Below are positions 4,211 through 27,892 of a stretch of 32,000 nucleotides of DNA, piece by piece (position 1 is the first letter of the stretch; each line of letters starts with the position of its first letter). Made by a program: the position numbers and the translations under genes. Below the pieces are notes generated by a model. That model saw only the letters and a list, made by a program, of their open reading frames with translations, was not told where the DNA came from and did not search any database. This DNA comes from Nitrosopumilaceae archaeon (GTDB taxonomy: Archaea > Thermoproteota > Nitrososphaeria > Nitrososphaerales > Nitrosopumilaceae), in NCBI GenBank assembly GCA_035935115.1, contig DASYXK010000020.1:33637-65636 (forward strand), in the 5' to 3' direction.

Positions 4211-5809
4211 TTGAAAGTTCTGTTCATAAATCCCATTGTTAGATATTTTGATTACCCTAGACATGTGCCATTAGGAATTCTTCAGATTATCTCCATACTT
4301 GAAAGAGATCACAAATGGGTAAAGTTTCAACTCTATGATGCCAATGCACATAGAATTGATGATGTAAATCATGGGAATACAGATGGCCTTGACGAAGTTC
4401 TCAGATCAGATGACTTTGATGTTGTTGCTATTGGTGGATTAATCACTGGTTATAATTACATAAAGCAAGCAGTTCGACGTGTGAAGGAATTCCAACCGCA
4501 TGTAAAAATCGTTGCAGGTGGCGGATTTTATTCCTCAATGCCCTATGAAATGATGAATTTCCTTCCTGAGATCGATTATGGTGTGACTGGTGAAGCATAT
4601 CTTACATTTCCTGAATTGTTAAAAGCTATTAAAAATAATGAAGATGTTACTGATGTAAAAGGAATTTTTTATCGCAGGGATAGTAGTATAAAATTTTCAC
4701 AGCCACGAGAATTGATTCCCGAAATGGATTGGTTACCATTTCCTTCCTACAAGTACGCGCCATTAGAGATTTACTTCAAGTACTCTGAACTACTCTTGAG
4801 TGAAATATCTATGACTTCAAAAAAGAGACTAGATGCATGTTTTAGTCTTTCCTGTCCTTTCCTGTGTAGATTTTGTTGGGATCTAGGTATTACTTCCAAC
4901 TACGAAATTAACATGGTAGATGGAAAACCCCAATATGATGGAGGAAGACCAGGACGAAAAAGTATCGTAAGACAGCATTCACCAGAGTACATAGCCAGAT
5001 ACATTGAATATTTACGCAGAGAATTCTTAGACATACCAAGGGATGACGAAGGAGGTGGAATAGGTGATCCTATAGATTTCTTAGGTTGGTCAGATGAAAA
5101 CATAGTAGCACATGACGCTCAAACTGGTTTCACATGGCTCAAAGAGATAAGAGAAGAGTTATGGAAAAAAGATCTTGTTGCAGAATGTGTAAAGAGAGGA
5201 GTTGCCCATGATCCAAGTTTCTGTAACGGTCCTCATTTTGGCGGTACAAGCCATGCAGGCCTTGTCAATAAGGAGATGTTAAAGACTTTGAGAGACATAG
5301 GATTCACATATTTGGATTATGGACTAGAACATTGGGATAGTAAAATTCTCAAGAGTATAGGAAAAGGAAGCACCCCAGATACTAACAAAAGAGCTGTCAA
5401 TTGGACACTTGAGATGGGAATAAGACCCATACCTAATCAGATAATTATGTTTCCAGATGAAAGCTGGGAAACACTGAATACTATGCTGGACGCAATGAAA
5501 GAAACAGGCATTGTTAGCATGCCATTCATTTGTACGCCATACCCTGGTTCAGAATGGTATACAAAGTATAAAGAATATGTCAAAGAACAATATGATGGTA
5601 ACTTAGAAAAATTTGTTTCTGACCTTGAAGACGCAACAAAACCTACTGCATTATTAACTAAGAGATTTACTCCTGCTGAAGCAGTAGGAATACAGCACAT
5701 AATAGGCCATGCGGCAATTAGTAGAGATTTCAATAACGCCAAAAGACTTTTGTCATTGTCAAAGAAAATGAAAGAAAGTCAATATGTTCAAGATCAAATT
5801 TCAAGTTAA
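4211..5809 (+). CDS. B12 (cobalamin)-binding-domain radical SAM enzyme (class B, probable C- or unusual methyltransferase)
   Basis: 532-aa ORF. N-terminal B12-binding-domain pattern (KVLFINP..., DVVAIGGLITGYNY..., KIVAGGGF) followed by the radical SAM cluster motif CPFLCRFC (CxxxCxxC, nt 4853-4876). TTG start at 4211; the next in-frame ATG falls well inside the B12-binding domain. Confidence 0.85.
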   Translation: MKVLFINPIVRYFDYPRHVPLGILQIISILERDHKWVKFQLYDANAHRIDDVNHGNTDGLDEVLRSDDFDVVAIGGLITGYNYIKQAVRRVKEFQPHVKIVAGGGFYSSMPYEMMNFLPEIDYGVTGEAYLTFPELLKAIKNNEDVTDVKGIFYRRDSSIKFSQPRELIPEMDWLPFPSYKYAPLEIYFKYSELLLSEISMTSKKRLDACFSLSCPFLCRFCWDLGITSNYEINMVDGKPQYDGGRPGRKSIVRQHSPEYIARYIEYLRREFLDIPRDDEGGGIGDPIDFLGWSDENIVAHDAQTGFTWLKEIREELWKKDLVAECVKRGVAHDPSFCNGPHFGGTSHAGLVNKEMLKTLRDIGFTYLDYGLEHWDSKILKSIGKGSTPDTNKRAVNWTLEMGIRPIPNQIIMFPDESWETLNTMLDAMKETGIVSMPFICTPYPGSEWYTKYKEYVKEQYDGNLEKFVSDLEDATKPTALLTKRFTPAEAVGIQHIIGHAAISRDFNNAKRLLSLSKKMKESQYVQDQISS

Positions 5810-5840: not shown

Positions 5841-7133
5841 TTAGTTTTTATCCAATAATTTCATAATTTCATCACAAATCCTTTCTGTTGCACGGCCATC
5901 AGATTTGTACAGAAATTCTCTAATGAATAACTCGCGTTGTTGTTCATATTTAGGATTTGTTGATAAGGCATTATGAATCGTGTTGATAAGATCAGCAGAA
6001 TCATTACATTCTAGAGCTAGACCTCTTTGTACAAATGGATCTTTCTCATAATTGAAAAAATTACATAGAATTATTGGCTTTTTTGCCAGTATAGAATATA
6101 CATCAGCTGTAGTGAATTGAAAAGAAAGTACAACATCAGCATTCTCTACAAATTCTTGTATGTTACCATTTTTATAAACAGGTATTGAAGGATCTATTGA
6201 GTTTATCAAAGATTGATATTCTGAAAGAACGGAATATGATGGATGAATTTTAACTACAAGTGACATTTCTTGTTTATTTTCAAAAATTGTTTTTACAATT
6301 TGTGTAATAGTAGTATCTCTTTGTGTTCTTGTCCAGAATCCATGTTCATATTTAGGGGTAGGTGCAAATAATATGCGTATTTTATTACCTTTAACATAAT
6401 CTTTTTTTATTGAAAGTTTGTGAAAAAATTCATCATATATAGGATTTCCCGTTATTACGAATTGTGATCTTTCAAATCCGCCATCAAGATAGTCATTTAG
6501 TAAATTTTCATTATCAAGAAAATGCAAAGTACCTCCGAATCTAGAGTCAAAAAAAATTCTAGTACTGGAAAGAAAAAGTTTCAGTAGAATAAAAAAATTT
6601 TTAAATATTTGTAAAATACTCCATTTCATTGCTCTTTGTGTTCGTACCAAGAAAAGATATTTGTAAACAAAGAATCTACCTCTTCTCATAAATTGTTTTT
6701 TATTTTGACCAGTATCTGTTGGAATTGAACTTTCAAAAAAACGGGTTATATATGATTTTATGAGTGTTAATCTATTAGTTTTAAAATTAAAGCCAGTTGT
6801 AACATGAGAAACTACTGGAATATTTAGAAATTTTCCAGCTAAAGAAAATGCATAATCAATAAAACCCCATCCCGTGGTTGCATAAATTATATCTGGTTTT
6901 TCTTTTTTTAAAACCTCAAAAGCATTGTTATAATCATGAATACTCGATATAAAAGAATCTGAATCTGATGTTAGTAATGAATCAAGTTTATCCGGACTAT
7001 AGATAAACCAGGTAATATGTACAATGATTCCCCTAGTTTTTAGTTCAGATACTATACTATGGAGTACCATAGTAGTTACTGATGTTACATCAGGCATAAC
7101 ATGCACCGGTGCGAAAATTTTTATTGTTTGCAC
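5841..7133 (-). CDS. TagB/TagF-like (Glyphos_transf-like) GT-B protein with HP motif; candidate CDP-/CMP-donor transferase
   Basis: 430-aa ORF. IRILFAPTPK resembles the (I/L)LYAPT(F/W)R motif and VVKIHPS the K-x-HP motif (HP codons at 6240-6245) of CDP-glycerol glycerophosphotransferases. The C-terminal domain is clearly paralogous to the 7331-9202 product (shared K.HP, IDPSIP.Y, DV, TTA, KP blocks). Confidence 0.5.
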   Translation of the reverse strand: MQTIKIFAPVHVMPDVTSVTTMVLHSIVSELKTRGIIVHITWFIYSPDKLDSLLTSDSDSFISSIHDYNNAFEVLKKEKPDIIYATTGWGFIDYAFSLAGKFLNIPVVSHVTTGFNFKTNRLTLIKSYITRFFESSIPTDTGQNKKQFMRRGRFFVYKYLFLVRTQRAMKWSILQIFKNFFILLKLFLSSTRIFFDSRFGGTLHFLDNENLLNDYLDGGFERSQFVITGNPIYDEFFHKLSIKKDYVKGNKIRILFAPTPKYEHGFWTRTQRDTTITQIVKTIFENKQEMSLVVKIHPSYSVLSEYQSLINSIDPSIPVYKNGNIQEFVENADVVLSFQFTTADVYSILAKKPIILCNFFNYEKDPFVQRGLALECNDSADLINTIHNALSTNPKYEQQRELFIREFLYKSDGRATERICDEIMKLLDKN

Positions 7134-15492: not shown

Positions 15493-15948
15493 ATGAAAAA
15501 TGATACTATAAGGTCTATAAAACTGGAAAAACATGAAACAAAAGACATTGTAGATAAACATGTCAATGGCTCTTTAACTGTAATATGGAGAGATTGGGAT
15601 CAAATATTAGAAGTAGAGCCAAGGATGGCATATGTTTCATCAGTAAATCCAGGAGAAGTAAAAGGACCTCACTTACATCTAAAAAGGGATAGCTATTTTG
15701 TTTGTATCCGAGGAAAGGTAGTGTTTATTGCAAAAGATCTTTCTGGTAAGTATCACGAGATAGAATCCAGTGAGCATGAACCAGTACTAGTTCAAGTACC
15801 AAAAAATCATCCATCAGCTCACATCAATATAACAGATCAAATATCAACCATTCTTACCCTTGCAAATCCAGCATGGAGACCAAATGATGATGAAATGGTA
15901 AATGTAACTTTTGAAGATTATGATTGGAGCAAATGGAAAAAAAAGTAA
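15493..15948 (+). CDS. RmlC-like cupin (dTDP-4-dehydrorhamnose 3,5-epimerase or FdtA-type dTDP-sugar isomerase)
   Basis: 151-aa ORF divergent from rmlB. Core KGPHLHLKRDSYFVCIRGKVVFIAKD resembles the RG(L/x)HxH/Q ... G-x-v cupin core of RmlC and FdtA/QdtA. Shorter than the roughly 180-aa RmlC proteins I recall. Confidence 0.55.
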   Translation: MKNDTIRSIKLEKHETKDIVDKHVNGSLTVIWRDWDQILEVEPRMAYVSSVNPGEVKGPHLHLKRDSYFVCIRGKVVFIAKDLSGKYHEIESSEHEPVLVQVPKNHPSAHINITDQISTILTLANPAWRPNDDEMVNVTFEDYDWSKWKKK

Positions 15949-16000: not shown

Positions 16001-17185
16001 ATGTCAGACAGTTGGAATAGAATTAGCAGATTTTTTACAAGATTCAAAGATTTAACAACTCTAGGTTTTGCAACTGTAGTCTCAAACGCAATTTCTGGAA
16101 TATTTTGGCTTTTCATAGCTTCATTATTGGGCACAGAACATTATGGAGAAGTAAGCTATCTGATAGCAATATCATATGTAGCATTAGCAATTTGTTCAAT
16201 TGGCGGTTCAAACACTATACTAGTATATTCTGCAAAAGAAGTCAAAATACAACCCCCAATCTACTTCATAACAACTATTTCAAGCATAGTTGCTGCTGGA
16301 ATTTTATTTTTAATTATTCACAATATCGAAACTAGTTTACTTGTTATTACAAGTACAATGTTTTCAATTGCTACCGCGGAAATAATAGGCAGAAAACTTT
16401 ACCTGAAATACTCTAAATACATTCTTGTACAGAGAGTTATCTTTGTAGCAATTGCCATAGGATTTTACTATGTTATTGGTCCATATGGAATAATTCTGGG
16501 ATATGCAATTTCCTATTTACCATTTCTGATACCTGTATACAAAGGACTTTTGAAATTTAATATGGATTTTTCAGTCCTACGAACCCGTTCTCGCTTTATG
16601 ATCAATAGCTATCTTTTGGATCTTTCGAGAACTTTTAGCGGGCAAACCGATAAATTGTTTATTGCTCCACTGTTTGGTTTTGCTATTCTTGGAAATTATC
16701 AATTAGGCGTTCAATTTTTAAGTCTTTTAACTACATTACCTGGAATAGTGTATTCATACGTACTTCCACATGACGCAAGTGGCAATCCCAACCAGAGACT
16801 AAAGAAAACAATAATAATAATTTCAATTATCCTTGCTGCGCTTGGGTCATTGTTAGGACCTATAGTTATGCCACTACTATTTCCAAAATTTACTAATGCT
16901 GGCGAAGTTATTCGAATTATAAGTTTGGCAGTTATTCCAACGACAATAAACTATATGTATATTTCAAAATTTTTGGGTTCTGAGAACAACAAAATTGTTG
17001 TCATAAGTTCTGGGATATATGTAATAGTACAAATTTCAGGCATTTTTGTATTAGGACATCTTTTTGGTATAAGAGGTGTAACAAGCGCTTTTGTGCTTGC
17101 AACAGCAGCAGAATCTTTATTCTTATTTATCATGGATCGTCATTCTAGAAAAAATGAAATGCCAGCATCTAATGTAGAGCATTAA
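16001..17185 (+). CDS. Polysaccharide biosynthesis / MOP-superfamily (Wzx-like) flippase, stand-alone paralog
   Basis: 394-aa polytopic membrane ORF. The N-terminus LTTLGFATVVSNAISGIFWLFIASLLGTEHYGEVSY fits the Polysacc_synt-type start. 36 of the first 60 residues are identical to the N-terminus of the 25112-27892 product. Confidence 0.6.
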   Translation: MSDSWNRISRFFTRFKDLTTLGFATVVSNAISGIFWLFIASLLGTEHYGEVSYLIAISYVALAICSIGGSNTILVYSAKEVKIQPPIYFITTISSIVAAGILFLIIHNIETSLLVITSTMFSIATAEIIGRKLYLKYSKYILVQRVIFVAIAIGFYYVIGPYGIILGYAISYLPFLIPVYKGLLKFNMDFSVLRTRSRFMINSYLLDLSRTFSGQTDKLFIAPLFGFAILGNYQLGVQFLSLLTTLPGIVYSYVLPHDASGNPNQRLKKTIIIISIILAALGSLLGPIVMPLLFPKFTNAGEVIRIISLAVIPTTINYMYISKFLGSENNKIVVISSGIYVIVQISGIFVLGHLFGIRGVTSAFVLATAAESLFLFIMDRHSRKNEMPASNVEH

Positions 17186-19366: not shown

Positions 19367-20839
19367 CTAGAATTTGAAATATATGAAATCTTCAGGATTT
19401 CCACGATAAAAGAACAGTATCAAAAGTATTATTGCTGCCAAAAAACCAAACCAATAAACATGTTTAAGATTAGACAGTCTTTCCACCATATTCATTTTTT
19501 TATACGTAATAAAAGACAAAATTATAAACAAGACCATTAATGCCAAAGGAAAATTATGATATTTTATAAAATAGCCTATGTTTTGAATTTGAAAATCAAA
19601 AAACACATACTTGGTCATAGAATAAATCATATCATTAAAATCATGGACTCTAAATGCAATCCATGCTAAAAATATAAGATATTGTGTTATTAAAATAGAA
19701 AATATCTTACCAATGTTGCTTTTGAAAAATTTATTATTTTCAAGTATCGGAAATTTATTTACTATTGCCTTATGTATAGCTAAATACGAACCATGCAAAA
19801 CTCCCCAAATAACAAAATTCCAAGATGCACCGTGCCATAAACCTCCCAAAAACATCACTGCAAATAAATTAAAATAAGTCCTTAAGTGAGATTTGCGATT
19901 CCCGCCTAATGGAACATAAAGATAATCCCTTAACCAAGATGACAAGGAGATGTGCCACCGTCTCCAAAAATCAGACGGGGATGTTGCAAAATATGGTTTG
20001 TTGAAATTAATCGGGATCTTAAAGCCTAGTATTAATGCAGCACCTATTGCAATATCAGTATATCCAGAGAAGTCACAGTAGATTTGAAATCCAAAGCCAA
20101 TTGCACCAATAATTATAGTTAAAGAGTTTAACCCAACAGGATGGCCAAAAATTTCGTTTACCATAGGTGCAATATTATCAGCAAAAAACATTTTTTTCAA
20201 AAATCCCATTGCCATCATAGTAACTCCCAATTTGAGGTTTGAATCAAAGAGTAGAATTTGGCGAAGTCTTGCTCCTACTTGAGGATTATCAAGTTTTTCT
20301 CTAAGTTGTGGCAAGAAATCCTTTGCACGTAAAATTGGACCTGCGACTAGCTGTGGGAAAAATGCTACAAAGATAGCATATTCCACAAAAGTTTTTGCCG
20401 GCTGTATTTGCCCTCGATATATGCTTACGGTATAAGTAATTGAATGAAACGTATAAAATGAAATTCCAATTGGTAGTGCCAGATTCAAAAATGGAATGTT
20501 TGTACCAAGATCAAAATGTTGCCCTAGAAAATTGATTTGCGTTATAGCAAAATCACTATATTTAAAAAATCCCAATAATCCTAAATTTCCCGCAAGACTC
20601 GTTATCAACATGGCCTTCTTTCTTTTTATATTGTCAGCTTTCCAGATTGCTTTTCCAAAATAAAAGTCCCAGATTGTTGTAAATATTAAAAGTGTGATCA
20701 AATAATTGCTTGAATAATAAAAGAAAAAGTAGCTTGCAAATAACAAAAAGAGATGCTGAAATTTTCTTTCTTTTATTATTGCAATTGTAGTTAATACAAC
20801 TATAAAGAAAATTATAAAATCAATTGTGTTGAATAGCAT
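19367..20839 (-). CDS. MBOAT-family membrane O-acyltransferase (AlgI/DltB/PatA-like)
   Basis: 490-aa polytopic ORF. FWRRWHISLSSWLRDYLYVPLGGNR and GGLWHGASWNFVIWGVLHG are classic MBOAT blocks including the conserved His. Its ATG overlaps the stop of the upstream gene (TAATG, nt 20837-20841). Confidence 0.85.
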   Translation of the reverse strand: MLFNTIDFIIFFIVVLTTIAIIKERKFQHLFLLFASYFFFYYSSNYLITLLIFTTIWDFYFGKAIWKADNIKRKKAMLITSLAGNLGLLGFFKYSDFAITQINFLGQHFDLGTNIPFLNLALPIGISFYTFHSITYTVSIYRGQIQPAKTFVEYAIFVAFFPQLVAGPILRAKDFLPQLREKLDNPQVGARLRQILLFDSNLKLGVTMMAMGFLKKMFFADNIAPMVNEIFGHPVGLNSLTIIIGAIGFGFQIYCDFSGYTDIAIGAALILGFKIPINFNKPYFATSPSDFWRRWHISLSSWLRDYLYVPLGGNRKSHLRTYFNLFAVMFLGGLWHGASWNFVIWGVLHGSYLAIHKAIVNKFPILENNKFFKSNIGKIFSILITQYLIFLAWIAFRVHDFNDMIYSMTKYVFFDFQIQNIGYFIKYHNFPLALMVLFIILSFITYKKMNMVERLSNLKHVYWFGFLAAIILLILFFYRGNPEDFIYFKF

Positions 20840-21843
20840 TATCGCCCAATCTCATTTAGAATTATTTTGGAAACATCTTCGCTATAGATGATAGAGTTTT
20901 GATTATAGGCAACATGCATGGCATCTGTCCAGATGTTTAATTCATTGTATTTATCTTGAAGCGAATAAAGGTCCATTCCATATTTGTAATGTGCATCTTC
21001 CAGTGTAGAATTAAAAAGCTGTCTATCAGAATTTGAGATTTTATCTACCCATAATTTGTTATATGGATTAGCAAAAACAGCAACTTGAATATTATTCCTC
21101 TTTAATGTATCAATAATTTTATCAAATGCAGATATCTCCTTTGGATCAATTCCATTAAAAATTCGTGGTGTTTGGGTAAATTCTTTTTTTATTATTTCAT
21201 TACTGGTAATGTTGTCTGCCTGATTATGTATTATAAGAGGAGTGTTTGAATTCACATCAGGATAGTGACCTTGAGCTCCTGTGACATAAAGATAAAGCGT
21301 CAAGGTAACAAGTTGGGGATCGTTTAAAATTTTTGAAACAAACTCGTTATCTGTAAAAAAACTAGTTTGTGCACCAAACAAGTTACGTGGATCTGGAAAT
21401 ATGCTTTTTGACTTTTCATCAGTAGAAAATCCAATCGGAGATGTGTTTTCTTGGCTTATTTTTTCAAAATCCCTATACCCTACACCATAAATCACTAAAT
21501 TTGGTTTCAATGAAATTATTTTATTCAAGTCATTTAATCTTGTAGAAGGTTTATCAGCTGAAATTGCCAAGTTATAGACAACAAAATTATTGTTATAACT
21601 CGATATGCGCTGATTGATGAATGTTGTGTTTAAAGTTCCAACTTGACTAGATCCCAAGATAAAAATTTGTTTTTGTTGTTGCTCGGAATTTAGTTTGGTT
21701 TTAACCCATCTATTGAATGGTTCATAATTAATCAAATACCATTCCATAACAGAATAAAATACGATTAATGCAAAAACAAATGCACCAAGTATGATAAGCG
21801 AAATTTTTATGTTTGGCGATAACGTAACATTCATCGAAACCAA
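20839..21843 (-). CDS. DltD-like / SGNH-fold partner of the MBOAT, N-terminally membrane-anchored
   Basis: 334-aa ORF (TTG at 21843; ATG at 21834 giving MNVTL... is the alternative start). One N-terminal TM helix (ISLIILGAFVFALIVFYSV). Candidate SGNH block I FILGSSQVG and block V WTDAMHV (DxxH). Translationally coupled to the MBOAT gene. Confidence 0.5.
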   Translation of the reverse strand: MVSMNVTLSPNIKISLIILGAFVFALIVFYSVMEWYLINYEPFNRWVKTKLNSEQQQKQIFILGSSQVGTLNTTFINQRISSYNNNFVVYNLAISADKPSTRLNDLNKIISLKPNLVIYGVGYRDFEKISQENTSPIGFSTDEKSKSIFPDPRNLFGAQTSFFTDNEFVSKILNDPQLVTLTLYLYVTGAQGHYPDVNSNTPLIIHNQADNITSNEIIKKEFTQTPRIFNGIDPKEISAFDKIIDTLKRNNIQVAVFANPYNKLWVDKISNSDRQLFNSTLEDAHYKYGMDLYSLQDKYNELNIWTDAMHVAYNQNSIIYSEDVSKIILNEIGR

Positions 21844-24200: not shown

Positions 24201-25085
24201 TTGCATATTACAATAGGAATACCTGCATATAATGAAGAAAAAAACATAGCAAAGATAATTGTAAAATTACAAAAAATTGCAGATAAAATCATAGTTTGTA
24301 ATGATGGATCAACTGATCTTACAGGTGAGATAGCAGAAAAAATGGGAGCAGTTGTGATAAATCATACTAAGAATCTAGGATATGGTGCTGGAATTAGAAG
24401 CATATTTCTTAAAGCAAGAGAGATAGATTCTGATATTTTAGTAACATTTGACGCAGATGGACAACATAGAATTGAAGATGTTCAGACAGTGATAGAACCA
24501 ATTATAAAAAATGAAGCTGATGTTGTTATAGGTTCAAGATTTTTGGGAGATGGAAAACAAGTACCAGGATACAGAAAAGCTGGTATTAAGACAATAACTA
24601 GCGTTGCAAACACTGCAATGGATTCAAAAATTACTGATTCTCAAAGTGGTTTTAGGGCATATAACAAAAAAGTCCTAAAAGACATTATTCCATCTGAGTA
24701 TGGCATGGGTGTTTCAACTGAAATTCTAATCAAGGCAAATAAAATTGGGTGTAGAATAAAGGAAGTTCCAATAACAATATTATATGAAGGAGAAACGTCT
24801 ACTCACCATCCAGTTTCACATGGATTTTCGGTAATTCTTAGTACCATGAAATTCATATCCATTGAACATCCTCTGAAATTTTATGGCATACCAGGAGTAA
24901 TATTTTTAGGCATAGGACTATTCTTTACAATTTGGACGATTCAGATATTTACTGCGACAAGACAAATTCTGACAAATGTTGCTTTGGCTGGAGTAAGCTC
25001 GATTCTAATTGGAACAATGCTTACAATGACATCCATAATGCTTTACTCTTTAGTTAATGTTGTAAGAGAACGTCGTAGTAATTGA
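24201..25085 (+). CDS. GtrB/ArnC/DPM1-like polyprenyl(dolichyl)-phosphate glycosyltransferase (GT2) with two C-terminal TM helices
   Basis: 294-aa ORF. TTG is the only start in the open frame (in-frame TAA at 24189-24191). ITIGIPAYNEEKNIAKII, CNDGSTD, VTFDADGQH (DxD), then C-terminal helices GIPGVIFLGIGLFFTIWTIQIF and LAGVSSILIGTMLTMTSIMLY, as in GtrB/ArnC. Confidence 0.8.
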   Translation: MHITIGIPAYNEEKNIAKIIVKLQKIADKIIVCNDGSTDLTGEIAEKMGAVVINHTKNLGYGAGIRSIFLKAREIDSDILVTFDADGQHRIEDVQTVIEPIIKNEADVVIGSRFLGDGKQVPGYRKAGIKTITSVANTAMDSKITDSQSGFRAYNKKVLKDIIPSEYGMGVSTEILIKANKIGCRIKEVPITILYEGETSTHHPVSHGFSVILSTMKFISIEHPLKFYGIPGVIFLGIGLFFTIWTIQIFTATRQILTNVALAGVSSILIGTMLTMTSIMLYSLVNVVRERRSN

Positions 25086-25111
25086 TATGAAGATATCATT
25101 CATAATTAGAC

Positions 25112-27892
25112 ATGCCAAGTAGTTTAGACAAAATAAGTGGAATTGTAACCAGATTCAAAGGACTAACAACAATTGGTTTTGCAAATATCTTAGCTAGTGT
25201 TATCTCTGGTCTCTTTTGGCTTTATATCGCACGACTCTTAGGAACCACTCATTATGGAGAGATAAGCTACCTAATAGCTGCATCATCAATAGCTGTTACT
25301 CTGTCTTTTCTTGGTTCTGGAAATATTCTCTTGGTGTATACTGCAAAGGGAATAAAAATTCAATCTACTATTTACACTGTTGCAATTTTAGCTTCTGCCA
25401 TAGCCTCTGTAATTTTGTTCTTAATATTTTATGATGTAGGAGTAAGTCTGTTTGTTATAGGAAATGTGATTTTTGGATTAGTTACAAACGAGCTTGTTGG
25501 CCAGAAACGTTACAAGCAATACTCCTTTTATATGATAACACAAAAAATTCTTGGAACTGTTTTAGCCATAGCACTAAATCATTTTATCGGTCAGACAGGA
25601 GTAATTCTTGGTATATCAATTTCATTTTTCTTGCCTACACATAGAATCTATACTGTATTTAGAGATCATAAGATAGATTTTTCACTTCTAAAAGCTCGTT
25701 CTGGTTTTATCATAAACAGCTATATCATGGATATTGCCAGGGCATTTAGTACCACACTTGATAAATTGATAGTTGCGCCATTGCTTGGTTACGCATTACT
25801 TGGCAATTACCAACTAGGAGTCCAGTTTCTTTCGTTGCTTGGAATACTTCCTGGAATAATGTTTCAATACATTTTGCCACATGATGCAAGCGGAAATGCA
25901 AATAAAAAATTAAAGAAGTTATCCATACTCTTCTCAATAATATTAGCAATTTTAGGCGTATTTTTGGCACCGATATTTTTACCATTGTTATTTCCAAAGT
26001 TCACTGAAGCAACTCAAGTTATTCAAATAATCAGTTTTTCAATAATAGCTACTACCATCAACCTGACTTACATATCAAAATTCCTTGGTGATGAGAAAAG
26101 CAAGATAGTTTTGATTGGTTCTGCGATATATCTTTCCATTCAAATATCTCTAATAATAATTTTGGGCAAAATGATGGGAGTAAACGGTGCTGCAATTGCA
26201 GTTGTCATAGCTACGTTTTCTGAAACAGCATATTTGGTAAGTGTGGACAGATTTGTTAAGAAAAAAACCAATCAGGTTTCAATTAAAGAATCAACTGAGA
26301 ATTCAGATACATTATTTGAGGCAAATGAAACTAATAAGAATTCAGAGATTTTGCTTGAAAAAAATAAAACCAAAATGACAAATGGATTTCATTTCAAGTA
26401 TGCAATTCCAGTTTTAATATCAATAGTGGTTATGGGTCTATTACTTCGTGTGTATTATTTTCCTTATAATGTTCCATTGATATTAGATGCGTTAAATGAT
26501 TATTTTTTTTATGCTACTGATATTAGTATCTTAGGTCATCTACCAACTACATATAACATTGCAAACAATGGTTGGCCCATTTTCTTATCATTTTTCTTTA
26601 CAGTATTTCATTTCAATAACATATCAGACTATATGACATTACAAAGAATAGTGGCAACATCATTATCAGTATTGACAATTATTCTAGTTTATTTATTATG
26701 TAACAAATTTTTTGATAAACCTTATGCGATTATTGGAGCAGCTATATTTGCATTTGAACCTAGAATTATCCAAAACTCCGTACTAGGCATAACTGAACCA
26801 CTCTATATTTTCATAATAACTTTGGTATTGGTTTTATTCTTTAGCTCAAATAAAAAAATGCAATATGCGTCATTTGGAATTGTAGCACTTTCAACCATTG
26901 TTAGAGCTGAAGGATTGTTTGTATTTTTCCCCATGTTGATTATGTTCTTTGTAAACCACAGAAAGGAGAGACGCATAATAGCTAAGTCTGCTCTAGCGTT
27001 ATCTATTTTTATTTTGATAATATTACCAGTGGCTATTTTTAGAATTCAAACCGAAGGAGAGGATTCATTAACTAGCCGCATAGCAGCACCTACAAACGAA
27101 CTCTTATCGTCATCACATGAAGGCAATGTGAGTAAACTAATTTCTGGAACTATCGTAAAAGCAGAAAATGTCATAAAGTTCTCAGGGTGGTCTTTGATTC
27201 CTATTTTCATATTGTTTCTACCTATAGGTTTATTTTTAATTTTTAAGAAGCGAACTCCAGAAAGAACTGCGATCATAGTAATTGTAATTTCAATGATGCT
27301 TCCTGCAATCTATGGTTTTTCGTTTTTACCAGATACACGATACATCTATCCCTTGTTTCCGTTGTTTTGCATCATATCTATTTTTACAGTAAAAAGTTTT
27401 GCAGAAAAGATGAAAAACCAGAAAAGAATTTTAGTTTTAATTATAATAGGAATAGTACTATCATCTGGCATATTTTTAGAATTAAAGAAATTTGATTATG
27501 AACACCAGAGAGAAGCGTTTGGAATATCAGACTATGTTATCAAAATAACAAAAGGCGTTAATGATTATTACCCAGAAAGCAGCTATCTACAGCCAGCTGA
27601 ACTACCTGAAAAATGGCCAGCCCTCAAATCATCCATTAATTTCAAAACAACAGTGATTCCAATTGATGGTTTTGATTCTCTTACTGCATACATCAAATCT
27701 TCAGAGCAAAAAGGTTTGACACATTTGGTCTTGGATGGCCAAAAGAACAGACCACCATTTCTAAATGATGTATTTTATCATGAAGAAAAGTACCCCTATT
27801 TAGTTGAAGTATTTGATTCGTATAAGCACGGATTCAAATATCATGTAAAGATATTCAAGATAGATTACAATCTATTTAATTCATACAACTAG
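25112..27892 (+). CDS. Fusion protein: N-terminal MOP/Wzx-like flippase domain + C-terminal GT-C (ArnT/PMT-like, GT39/83-type) glycosyltransferase domain + about 130-aa soluble tail
   Basis: 926-aa uninterrupted ORF. Residues 1 to about 385 are paralogous to the 16001-17185 flippase. Hydrophilic N/K/E/T/S-rich linker at about nt 26264-26400. The downstream polytopic region has a first-loop acidic motif (LILDALNDYFFYATD), FEPRIIQNSVLGITEP and a late DTRYIYPLFP motif reminiscent of ArnT/PMT_2-type GT-C enzymes. No WWDxG oligosaccharyltransferase motif. Confidence 0.6.
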   Translation: MPSSLDKISGIVTRFKGLTTIGFANILASVISGLFWLYIARLLGTTHYGEISYLIAASSIAVTLSFLGSGNILLVYTAKGIKIQSTIYTVAILASAIASVILFLIFYDVGVSLFVIGNVIFGLVTNELVGQKRYKQYSFYMITQKILGTVLAIALNHFIGQTGVILGISISFFLPTHRIYTVFRDHKIDFSLLKARSGFIINSYIMDIARAFSTTLDKLIVAPLLGYALLGNYQLGVQFLSLLGILPGIMFQYILPHDASGNANKKLKKLSILFSIILAILGVFLAPIFLPLLFPKFTEATQVIQIISFSIIATTINLTYISKFLGDEKSKIVLIGSAIYLSIQISLIIILGKMMGVNGAAIAVVIATFSETAYLVSVDRFVKKKTNQVSIKESTENSDTLFEANETNKNSEILLEKNKTKMTNGFHFKYAIPVLISIVVMGLLLRVYYFPYNVPLILDALNDYFFYATDISILGHLPTTYNIANNGWPIFLSFFFTVFHFNNISDYMTLQRIVATSLSVLTIILVYLLCNKFFDKPYAIIGAAIFAFEPRIIQNSVLGITEPLYIFIITLVLVLFFSSNKKMQYASFGIVALSTIVRAEGLFVFFPMLIMFFVNHRKERRIIAKSALALSIFILIILPVAIFRIQTEGEDSLTSRIAAPTNELLSSSHEGNVSKLISGTIVKAENVIKFSGWSLIPIFILFLPIGLFLIFKKRTPERTAIIVIVISMMLPAIYGFSFLPDTRYIYPLFPLFCIISIFTVKSFAEKMKNQKRILVLIIIGIVLSSGIFLELKKFDYEHQREAFGISDYVIKITKGVNDYYPESSYLQPAELPEKWPALKSSINFKTTVIPIDGFDSLTAYIKSSEQKGLTHLVLDGQKNRPPFLNDVFYHEEKYPYLVEVFDSYKHGFKYHVKIFKIDYNLFNSYN

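Follow-up and report, generated by a model that had tools for sequence, protein, structure and literature searches.

In Haloferax volcanii, the proteins AglD, AglR, and AglS extend the N-glycan of the S-layer glycoprotein by a single mannose, in a step that takes place outside the cell (PMC3871713, PMC4335974). AglD is the dolichyl phosphate (Dol-P)-mannose synthase, AglR is a Wzx-like flippase or a helper in flipping, and AglS is the mannosyltransferase that uses Dol-P-mannose (PMC3871713, PMC4335974). Here, we analyze a 32,000-nucleotide stretch of DNA from a Nitrosopumilaceae archaeon (contig DASYXK010000020.1 of assembly GCA_035935115.1; the window), in which a GT2 glycosyltransferase gene is followed by a single open reading frame (ORF) that joins a MOP/Wzx-type flippase-like domain to a GT-C glycosyltransferase domain. 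In a clade of ammonia-oxidizing archaea, a flippase and an outward-facing transferase are merged into one 926-residue protein. The Haloferax set is comparable in its three roles, its archaeal setting, its dolichyl phosphate carrier, and its MOP-type flippase candidate (PMC3871713, PMC4335974), but it consists of three separate proteins, with aglD lying outside the agl cluster. The likeness drawn here is one of roles, and no AglR or AglS model was matched in NCBIfam.

Bacterial systems offer further parallels. Streptococcus pyogenes combines synthesis of a polyprenyl-phosphate monosaccharide by a GT-A enzyme (GacI, with GacJ) with the Wzx-type GacK and the external GT-C transferase GacL; it differs from the window in its undecaprenyl phosphate carrier, its cell-wall polysaccharide acceptor, its separate proteins, and the membrane helper that its GT-A enzyme needs (PMC8035078). 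The Gtr (GtrB/GtrA/Gtr-type transferase) and Arn (ArnC/ArnE-F/ArnT) systems follow the same three-step logic, and the GT2 of the window is homologous to ArnC while the C-terminal half of the fusion protein has the GT-C fold in common with ArnT. However, Gtr and Arn use small GtrA- or SMR-like flippases, act on O-antigen or lipid A, and have no flippase–transferase fusion. Among eukaryotic proteins, the GT2 is homologous to Dol-P-mannose synthase, which works with the lumenal, Dol-P-mannose- or Dol-P-glucose-dependent GT-C enzymes ALG12, ALG9, and the PMTs; one of the best matches to the fold of the C half is ALG12. To our knowledge, the eukaryotic flippases for Dol-P-mannose and Dol-P-glucose are still unidentified, and we know of no such fusion there.

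The role of the MOP protein Rft1 as a flippase is disputed (PMC4973528). The nearest published parallel to a fusion of glycosylation components is GacJ::GacI, which occurs naturally in some bacteria and in which the synthase is joined, on the cytoplasmic face, to its membrane helper (PMC10821137). It sets a precedent for partner proteins of such glycosylation systems being linked covalently in certain lineages. Our literature searches for a flippase::GT-C fusion or for glycosylation in Nitrosotalea found no relevant paper. An earlier note on this DNA, made from the sequence alone, had considered a flippase of the MOP type atypical for such a system; AglR (PMC3871713) and GacK (PMC8035078) are precedents, and MOP proteins are the norm in these archaea. 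What is new is the covalent MOP::GT-C architecture. The three-component logic was already known, the window fits it in encoding synthase, flippase candidate, and GT-C together with a linkage conserved among relatives, and the fusion is a rearrangement of this three-part system and not a new kind of machine.

Architecture of the GT2 and the MOP::GT-C protein

The two genes are laid out as the earlier note had described: the GT2 gene with its DAD motif and two C-terminal helices, a spacer of 26 nt, and the 926-aa ORF were all found in the sequence, and the hydrophilic linker of ~45 aa that the note had placed at about nt 26264-26400 lies at nt 26267-26401 (Table 1). The G+C content is ~31% throughout the window. 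Stops make up ~8% of random codons at this composition, and by our own arithmetic a 926-codon open frame would arise by chance with p ~1e-33. In the ORF list for 22-30 kb, the only minus-strand ORFs overlapping the GT2/fusion region are 76-83 aa long and lack support.

Table 1. Features of the glycosylation locus and a related gene (positions within the window)
Feature	Position	Strand	Evidence
GT2 polyprenyl(dolichyl)-phosphate glycosyltransferase (predicted), 294 aa	24201..25085	+	ORF, TTG start; PF00535; PDB and NCBIfam matches
MOP::GT-C fusion protein, single 926-aa ORF, stop codon included	25112..27892	+	ORF; full-length homologues
MOP/Wzx-type flippase-like domain, aa 1-385, 12 transmembrane helices, N-in/C-in (predicted)	25112..26266	+	AlphaFold2; Foldseek; positive-inside pattern; Pfam matches of family
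Cytoplasmic linker (predicted), aa 386-430, hydrophilic, K/S/E/N-rich	26267..26401	+	Low pLDDT; low conservation
GT-C membrane domain (predicted), aa 431-795, ~11 transmembrane helices	26402..27496	+	PF13231; AlphaFold2; Foldseek; profile match to Archaeoglobus AglB; invariant residues; topology
C-terminal extracytoplasmic alpha/beta domain (predicted), aa 796-926	27497..27889	+	AlphaFold2; conserved in fused and split homologues
Free-standing 394-aa MOP-domain paralogue	16001..17185	+	51% identity to fused MOP domain over 393 aa (E 7e-135); Polysacc_synt_3 E 0.0021

The GT2 matches Pfam Glycos_transf_2 (PF00535, E 2.8e-25) and, among NCBIfam models, mycobacterial PpgS (2e-40), archaeal AglJ (1.9e-36, end to end), a haloarchaeal Dol-P-hexose transferase (3e-29), and ArnC (4e-11). 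All of these enzymes load one sugar onto polyprenyl phosphate. Because the score falls under the equivalog cut-off in every NCBIfam match, the sugar cannot be named. In the Protein Data Bank (PDB), the nearest solved relative is the Dol-P-mannose synthase of P. furiosus (5mlz, 1.3e-18), followed by ArnC, and the FDADGQH motif of the GT2 aligns with the DAD of the Pyrococcus enzyme. The protein ends in two hydrophobic helices at ~aa 225-285. On these sequence matches, the GT2 is predicted to be a polyprenyl-phosphate glycosyltransferase of the Dol-P-mannose synthase/GtrB/ArnC/AglJ type.

The N half of the fusion protein was taken by the earlier note to be a MOP/Wzx-type flippase domain, and the predicted fold bears this out. 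In an AlphaFold2 model of moderate confidence (pLDDT 72), for which 42 fused homologues were aligned, aa 18-385 contain 12 helices, in keeping with the 12 (or 14) of Wzx-like MOP proteins. Its top Foldseek matches are MOP transporters only (MurJ, WzxE, and MATE), with E 6e-6 for MurJ (6nc9, PDB) and a TM-score normalized to the target of 0.69 for WzxE (9g9m, 414 columns of 415 residues). Aligned relatives match PF13440 in 30 of 34 cases and PF01943 in 27 of 34 (best 8e-10). The family comprises more than 500 matches, which are free-standing proteins of ~380-390 aa from Nitrosopumilales, and the N half is 60% identical to one of them, a 388-aa MOP protein of locus L004. The fused domain is the most conserved portion of the protein (column conservation 0.71) and keeps most of the residues that are invariant in the alignment of this mostly free-standing family, from which we predict that it has been retained as functional.

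The C half is a predicted GT-C glycosyltransferase by Pfam, profile, and modeled fold. PMT_2 (PF13231) scores 33.6 bits for the C half and 28.6 bits for the full protein, against a gathering threshold (GA) of 26.1, and there are sub-threshold matches to the PMT, Alg9-like, and STT3 Pfam models. The AlphaFold2 model of this half (pLDDT 83, predicted TM-score (pTM) 0.80) has 21 Foldseek matches in the PDB at E <= 0.001, and all 21 are GT-C enzymes: they include AglB (2.9e-7), ALG12 (TM-scores 0.57/0.59), STT3, ALG9, ArnT (5f15, 7e-5), and PglB. AftB, AftA, and Pmt4 come after them with weaker E-values. A profile of the window's C half and 18 free-standing homologues matches Archaeoglobus AglB (3waj) around the second acidic motif, with E562 aligned with AglB D161. 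The segment LILDALNDYFFYATD holds D459 and D470, both of which are invariant in the 42 fused homologues; for D459, the invariance extends to the 19-sequence GT-C alignment, which includes the 18 free-standing proteins. R743, within DTRYIYPLFP, is invariant as well.

The earlier note had called this half an ArnT/PMT-like GT-C domain. The GT-C assignment stands, with PMT_2 above its threshold, and the specific ArnT/PMT placement does not: since PF02366 (PMT) reaches 21.2 bits, under its GA of 22.7, and AglB, ALG12, and STT3 outrank ArnT and Pmt4, placement in GT39 (PMT) or GT83 (ArnT) is not established. We also considered an O-antigen ligase or polymerase, or an unknown membrane domain, and rejected both; no Wzy or ligase Pfam model matched at E <= 1, and the strong fold matches are all GT-C transferases. 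The soluble tail of ~130 aa, for which the earlier note had given an unknown fold, is now confidently predicted as an alpha/beta domain of ~115-130 residues (pLDDT ~80-95) that is conserved in fused and split relatives; it has no Pfam or PDB sequence match and belongs to no recognizable family. It probably binds the acceptor, a putative role.

Topology was predicted from the helices together with the distribution of Lys and Arg (positive-inside). The MOP domain is predicted to run from N-in to C-in, with its K/R-rich loops alternating consistently, and the linker is therefore cytoplasmic. GT-C helix 1 (aa 432-448) is predicted to cross outward into a first external loop (aa 449-503), which holds two juxtamembrane helices as well as D459 and D470. 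Across the ~11 GT-C helices, the K/R-rich loops (aa 530s, 578-582, 616-621, 713-715, and 766-772) all fall inside, and E549, E562, D741, R743, and the C-terminal domain fall outside. The helix-parity check proposed in the earlier note thus has a favorable outcome on the predicted helices and K/R pattern, as both domains can face correctly.

The linker itself has an AlphaFold confidence below 50 and a column conservation of 0.19, compared with 0.61-0.71 for the domains. Its length varies among homologues from 25 to 60 aa, with a median of 46, yet the frame is always kept, and K, S, E, and N are abundant. The end of the linker ('..KLEFxxKN', 'DRFHFKY') is similar to the cytoplasmic tail at the N-terminus of free-standing GT-C homologues. 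There is also an in-frame ATG at 26375-26377 (M422), nine codons ahead of GT-C helix 1 and approximately where free-standing GT-Cs start; an internal start at this codon could also yield a stand-alone GT-C.

Distribution and origin of the fusion

A search of 5.8 billion proteins returned ~45 full-length homologues of 904-939 aa with 45-72% identity, and the named full-length fused proteins are all from Candidatus Nitrosotalea or Nitrosopumilaceae. The fused homologues span more than 40 independent clusters. In the complete genome of Ca. Nitrosotalea okcheonensis, the same GT2 gene is followed after 22 nt by a 910-aa fusion. When one genome was scanned for each species, uninterrupted fused ORFs came up in eight more genomes (L001, L008, L010-L013, L015, and L017). 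Automatic annotation already names both halves in some database entries, as in the JGI label of one homologue (P0027): 'O-antigen/teichoic acid export membrane protein/4-amino-4-deoxy-L-arabinose transferase-like'. At split loci, three to five stop codons separate the genes where they share a frame, and a change of frame is usual. In one Nitrososphaerota metagenome-assembled genome (MAG; locus L022, 4505-6764), the fused gene appears to be broken into ORFs of 481 and 285 aa that overlap out of frame, owing either to decay into a pseudogene or to an error in the assembly.

Fused proteins are few in the wider family. Among the best 150 matches in the library clustered at 50% identity, there are two full-length fused representatives and one truncated representative, together with more than 90 split GT-C and more than 40 split MOP representatives. 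The fusion is a narrow, Nitrosotalea-centered state of a widespread operon. The survey of relatives that the earlier note had called for found separate adjacent genes in most other Nitrosopumilales, and the expected adjacency to a GT2 was also recovered: by ORF and BLAST parsing of related loci, from which all counts of gene order derive, the GT2 adjoins MOP and/or GT-C genes in ~30 of them. Such GT2/MOP/GT-C neighborhoods occur across Nitrosotalea, Nitrosotenuis, Nitrosarchaeum, and Nitrosopumilus. The order GT2-MOP-GT-C was found at 15 loci, including those of Nitrosotenuis chungbukensis, Nitrosarchaeum, and Nitrosopumilus; GT2-GT-C-MOP at three clear loci, with the last two genes overlapping by 4 nt in L004; and MOP-GT2-GT-C at one. 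Marine contigs carry GT2-MOP with the GT-C gene ~6 kb off, and L002, L042, and L023 have GT2-GT-C without an adjacent MOP gene. On one 538-kb contig (L005/L029), two tandem MOP paralogues adjoin a divergent 443-aa PMT/PMT_2 protein that has no adjacent GT2 and is 24% identical to the GT-C of the window.

The protein is a Rosetta-stone fusion of operon neighbors. It may have arisen in a GT2-MOP-GT-C operon when the MOP stop codon and a short intergenic spacer were lost, and the resemblance of the linker end to the N-tail of split GT-Cs fits such an origin. A single fusion event is unsupported, as fused and split forms are intermingled in the neighbor-joining trees of both the GT-C and the MOP domain; these trees carry no support values and are confounded by recombination, and fusion or fission events are not countable from them. 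Identity to the window over the MOP domain, GT-C membrane part, and tail is 65/80/82% for homologue P0001 and 86/56/80% for P0002. These sequence comparisons suggest that the fused gene is a mosaic whose GT-C membrane core has been exchanged by recombination separately from the MOP domain and tail, and such recombination likely took place within variable glycan islands.

One further protein (P0054, 1027 aa, L051 35-3118) has the same GT-C family fused to an unrelated MOP-like domain of ~498 aa, with a GT2 of the same kind (77% identity) lying convergent and downstream. The ~498-aa MOP family is otherwise free-standing, with more than 400 members. It is plausible that P0054 represents an independent second fusion, which is seen on a single 5.2-kb contig.

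Proposed function and alternatives

Gene fusions are among the strongest purely genomic signs that two proteins work together physically. We consider it probable that the fusion and its GT2 form a Dol-P-sugar-dependent surface glycosylation module of a Nitrosotalea-like ammonia-oxidizing archaeon (Nitrosopumilales). From the architecture, folds, topology parity, conservation, and synteny seen here, we infer a donor lipid, a sugar, a flipping step, an acceptor, and possible channeling as follows. By homology, the GT2 would work at the cytoplasmic face, where it would take one sugar from a nucleotide sugar and attach it to dolichyl phosphate. The 12-helix MOP domain would then move the Dol-P-sugar head group to the outer leaflet, and the GT-C domain would transfer the sugar to an acceptor outside the cell, making use of D459, D470, and the external C-terminal domain. 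As acceptor, a glycan already present on an S-layer or other surface glycoprotein, as for AglS, would be the likeliest; direct O-glycosylation of a protein would be the alternative. The flexible cytoplasmic tether would keep flippase and transferase side by side at a 1:1 ratio and may favor local hand-off of the lipid-linked sugar. A more demanding proposal is a flip-and-transfer machine, in which the lateral gate of the MOP domain releases Dol-P-sugar directly into the lipid groove of the tethered GT-C; we regard this as a tentative possibility.

Several observations weigh against the Dol-P-sugar module or its flippase component. The Dol-P-sugar role is drawn from homology and synteny in every member of the fusion family, and AglR, the archaeal precedent, is described as a protein that 'serves as or assists' the flippase (PMC3871713). 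In Pfam, neither Polysacc_synt (PF01943, 15.2 bits, GA 28.2, E 0.015) nor Polysacc_synt_3 (PF13440, 11.8 bits, GA 23, E 0.14) reaches its threshold with the N half of the window protein itself, and a sequence profile of the N-domain family found no solved MOP protein in the PDB. For the N half, the Pfam check proposed in the earlier note has a mixed outcome, with matches for most aligned relatives but scores under threshold for this sequence, and the MOP assignment accordingly draws on the predicted fold and on relatives. In the closely syntenic L002, the arrangement is GT2-GT-C with no dedicated MOP gene between, and only the other MOP paralogue is present, 6 kb away; the fused flippase is therefore dispensable or replaceable. 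Being limited to a narrow clade, the fusion does not have to bring any mechanistic benefit. Finally, the full-length AlphaFold2 model (pTM 0.52) does not establish an inter-domain interface, which leaves lipid channeling as a possibility only.

A different division of labor would have the MOP domain flip a Dol-P(P)-linked oligosaccharide, as Wzx or Agl15 would, with the GT-C acting like an oligosaccharyltransferase, ligase, or polymerase and the GT2 only elongating or priming the same glycan. Oligosaccharide repeat units are the classical cargo of MOP/PST proteins, the best matches to the fold of the C half include the oligosaccharyltransferases AglB and STT3, the C half also has the AglB profile match, and the many cytoplasmic glycosyltransferases of the cluster could build an oligosaccharide. 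However, the large C-terminal domain of AglB and STT3 is missing from the C half (496 aa, compared with 793-875 aa for the solved AglB/STT3-type chains), which scores E 0.42 with the archaeal STT3 model of NCBIfam. In Pfam it matches PMT_2, and the monosaccharide transferases ALG12, ALG9, and ArnT match equally well. The length and C-terminal helices of the GT2 are those of Dol-P-monosaccharide synthases, its match to AglJ is full-length, and an oligosaccharide could be served by the second, free-standing MOP protein of the window or by the ~498-aa MOP family of the lineage. We therefore judge this explanation unlikely.

It is quite improbable that the MOP domain no longer transports and has become a scaffold or chaperone for the GT-C, with Dol-P-sugar flipping by another route. 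A flippase role for MOP proteins with Dol-P-monosaccharides is unproven even for AglR (PMC3871713), and the three GT2-GT-C pairs that lack an adjacent MOP gene also speak for this reading. Against a scaffold stand the conservation of the MOP domain, the highest in the protein, its retention of most family-invariant residues, as in a working transporter, and the free-standing MOP orthologues in the same operon. The concern of the earlier note that the long ORF reflects a stop or frameshift missed in the linker, which the A-runs of the linker DNA (A7 at ~26261-26267) and the greater commonness of separate MOP and GT-C genes might encourage, has a negligible chance of being right, and an assembly or sequencing artifact is excluded by the fused clusters with their unrelated linkers, all in frame, in a complete genome and several MAGs, and by the several stops and usual frame change of true split loci.

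The glycan island and significance

The preferred reading, a Dol-P-sugar-dependent glycosylation module, has its setting in a large surface-glycan island that makes up the window. Nucleotide-sugar enzymes of the island include RmlA/B/D-like proteins, an FdtA-like isomerase, and a DegT aminotransferase, and the island also encodes several GT1/GT4 and GT2 transferases and four methyltransferases. The free-standing MOP paralogue lies 8 kb upstream of the fusion and has an orthologue in the syntenic L002, where it is the sole MOP protein of this family; putatively, it may flip another lipid-linked glycan or back up the fused domain.

Other genes of the island were noted in passing. A soluble 151-aa FdtA-like cupin (15493-15948, +) matches Polysacc_synt_C over the same residues (30.6 bits, GA 28.7) and has no hydrophobic segments; its L002 orthologue shows the same weak match, which probably reflects a contaminated or over-broad Pfam model. 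An MBOAT membrane O-acyltransferase (19367-20839, -) immediately adjoins a DltD-like protein (20839-21843, -), a pair that resembles bacterial systems for extracytoplasmic acylation of polysaccharides and teichoic acids, and in the marine relatives L006 and L007 an MBOAT gene lies directly before a PMT_2 gene. The island also holds a TagF-like CDP-glycerol glycerophosphotransferase (5841-7133, -), a cytidylyltransferase (2270-2974, +), and a B12-binding radical-SAM enzyme (4211-5809, +). This set gives a hint that the surface glycan contains glycerol phosphate or carries unusual modifications.

In archaea, the identity of the flippase for polyprenyl-phosphate monosaccharides is poorly settled. 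The fusion of a Wzx-like domain to a GT-C of the Dol-P-sugar type, the neighboring homologue of Dol-P-mannose synthase, and the split orthologues in equivalent operons throughout an archaeal order jointly provide a concrete, testable candidate. If the flip-and-transfer proposal is true, the fusion and the conserved GT2-MOP-GT-C operon would supply the first strong genomic evidence for MOP-family flippases of Dol-P monosaccharides, and the protein would be a target for structural capture of the hand-off. In any case, the single chain lends itself to cryo-EM and reconstitution. Should the fusion be without kinetic effect, it would be merely a lineage-specific rearrangement. The locus adds a conserved, previously undescribed surface-glycosylation module to the ammonia-oxidizing archaea, whose variable glycan islands probably shape their interactions with viruses and grazers.

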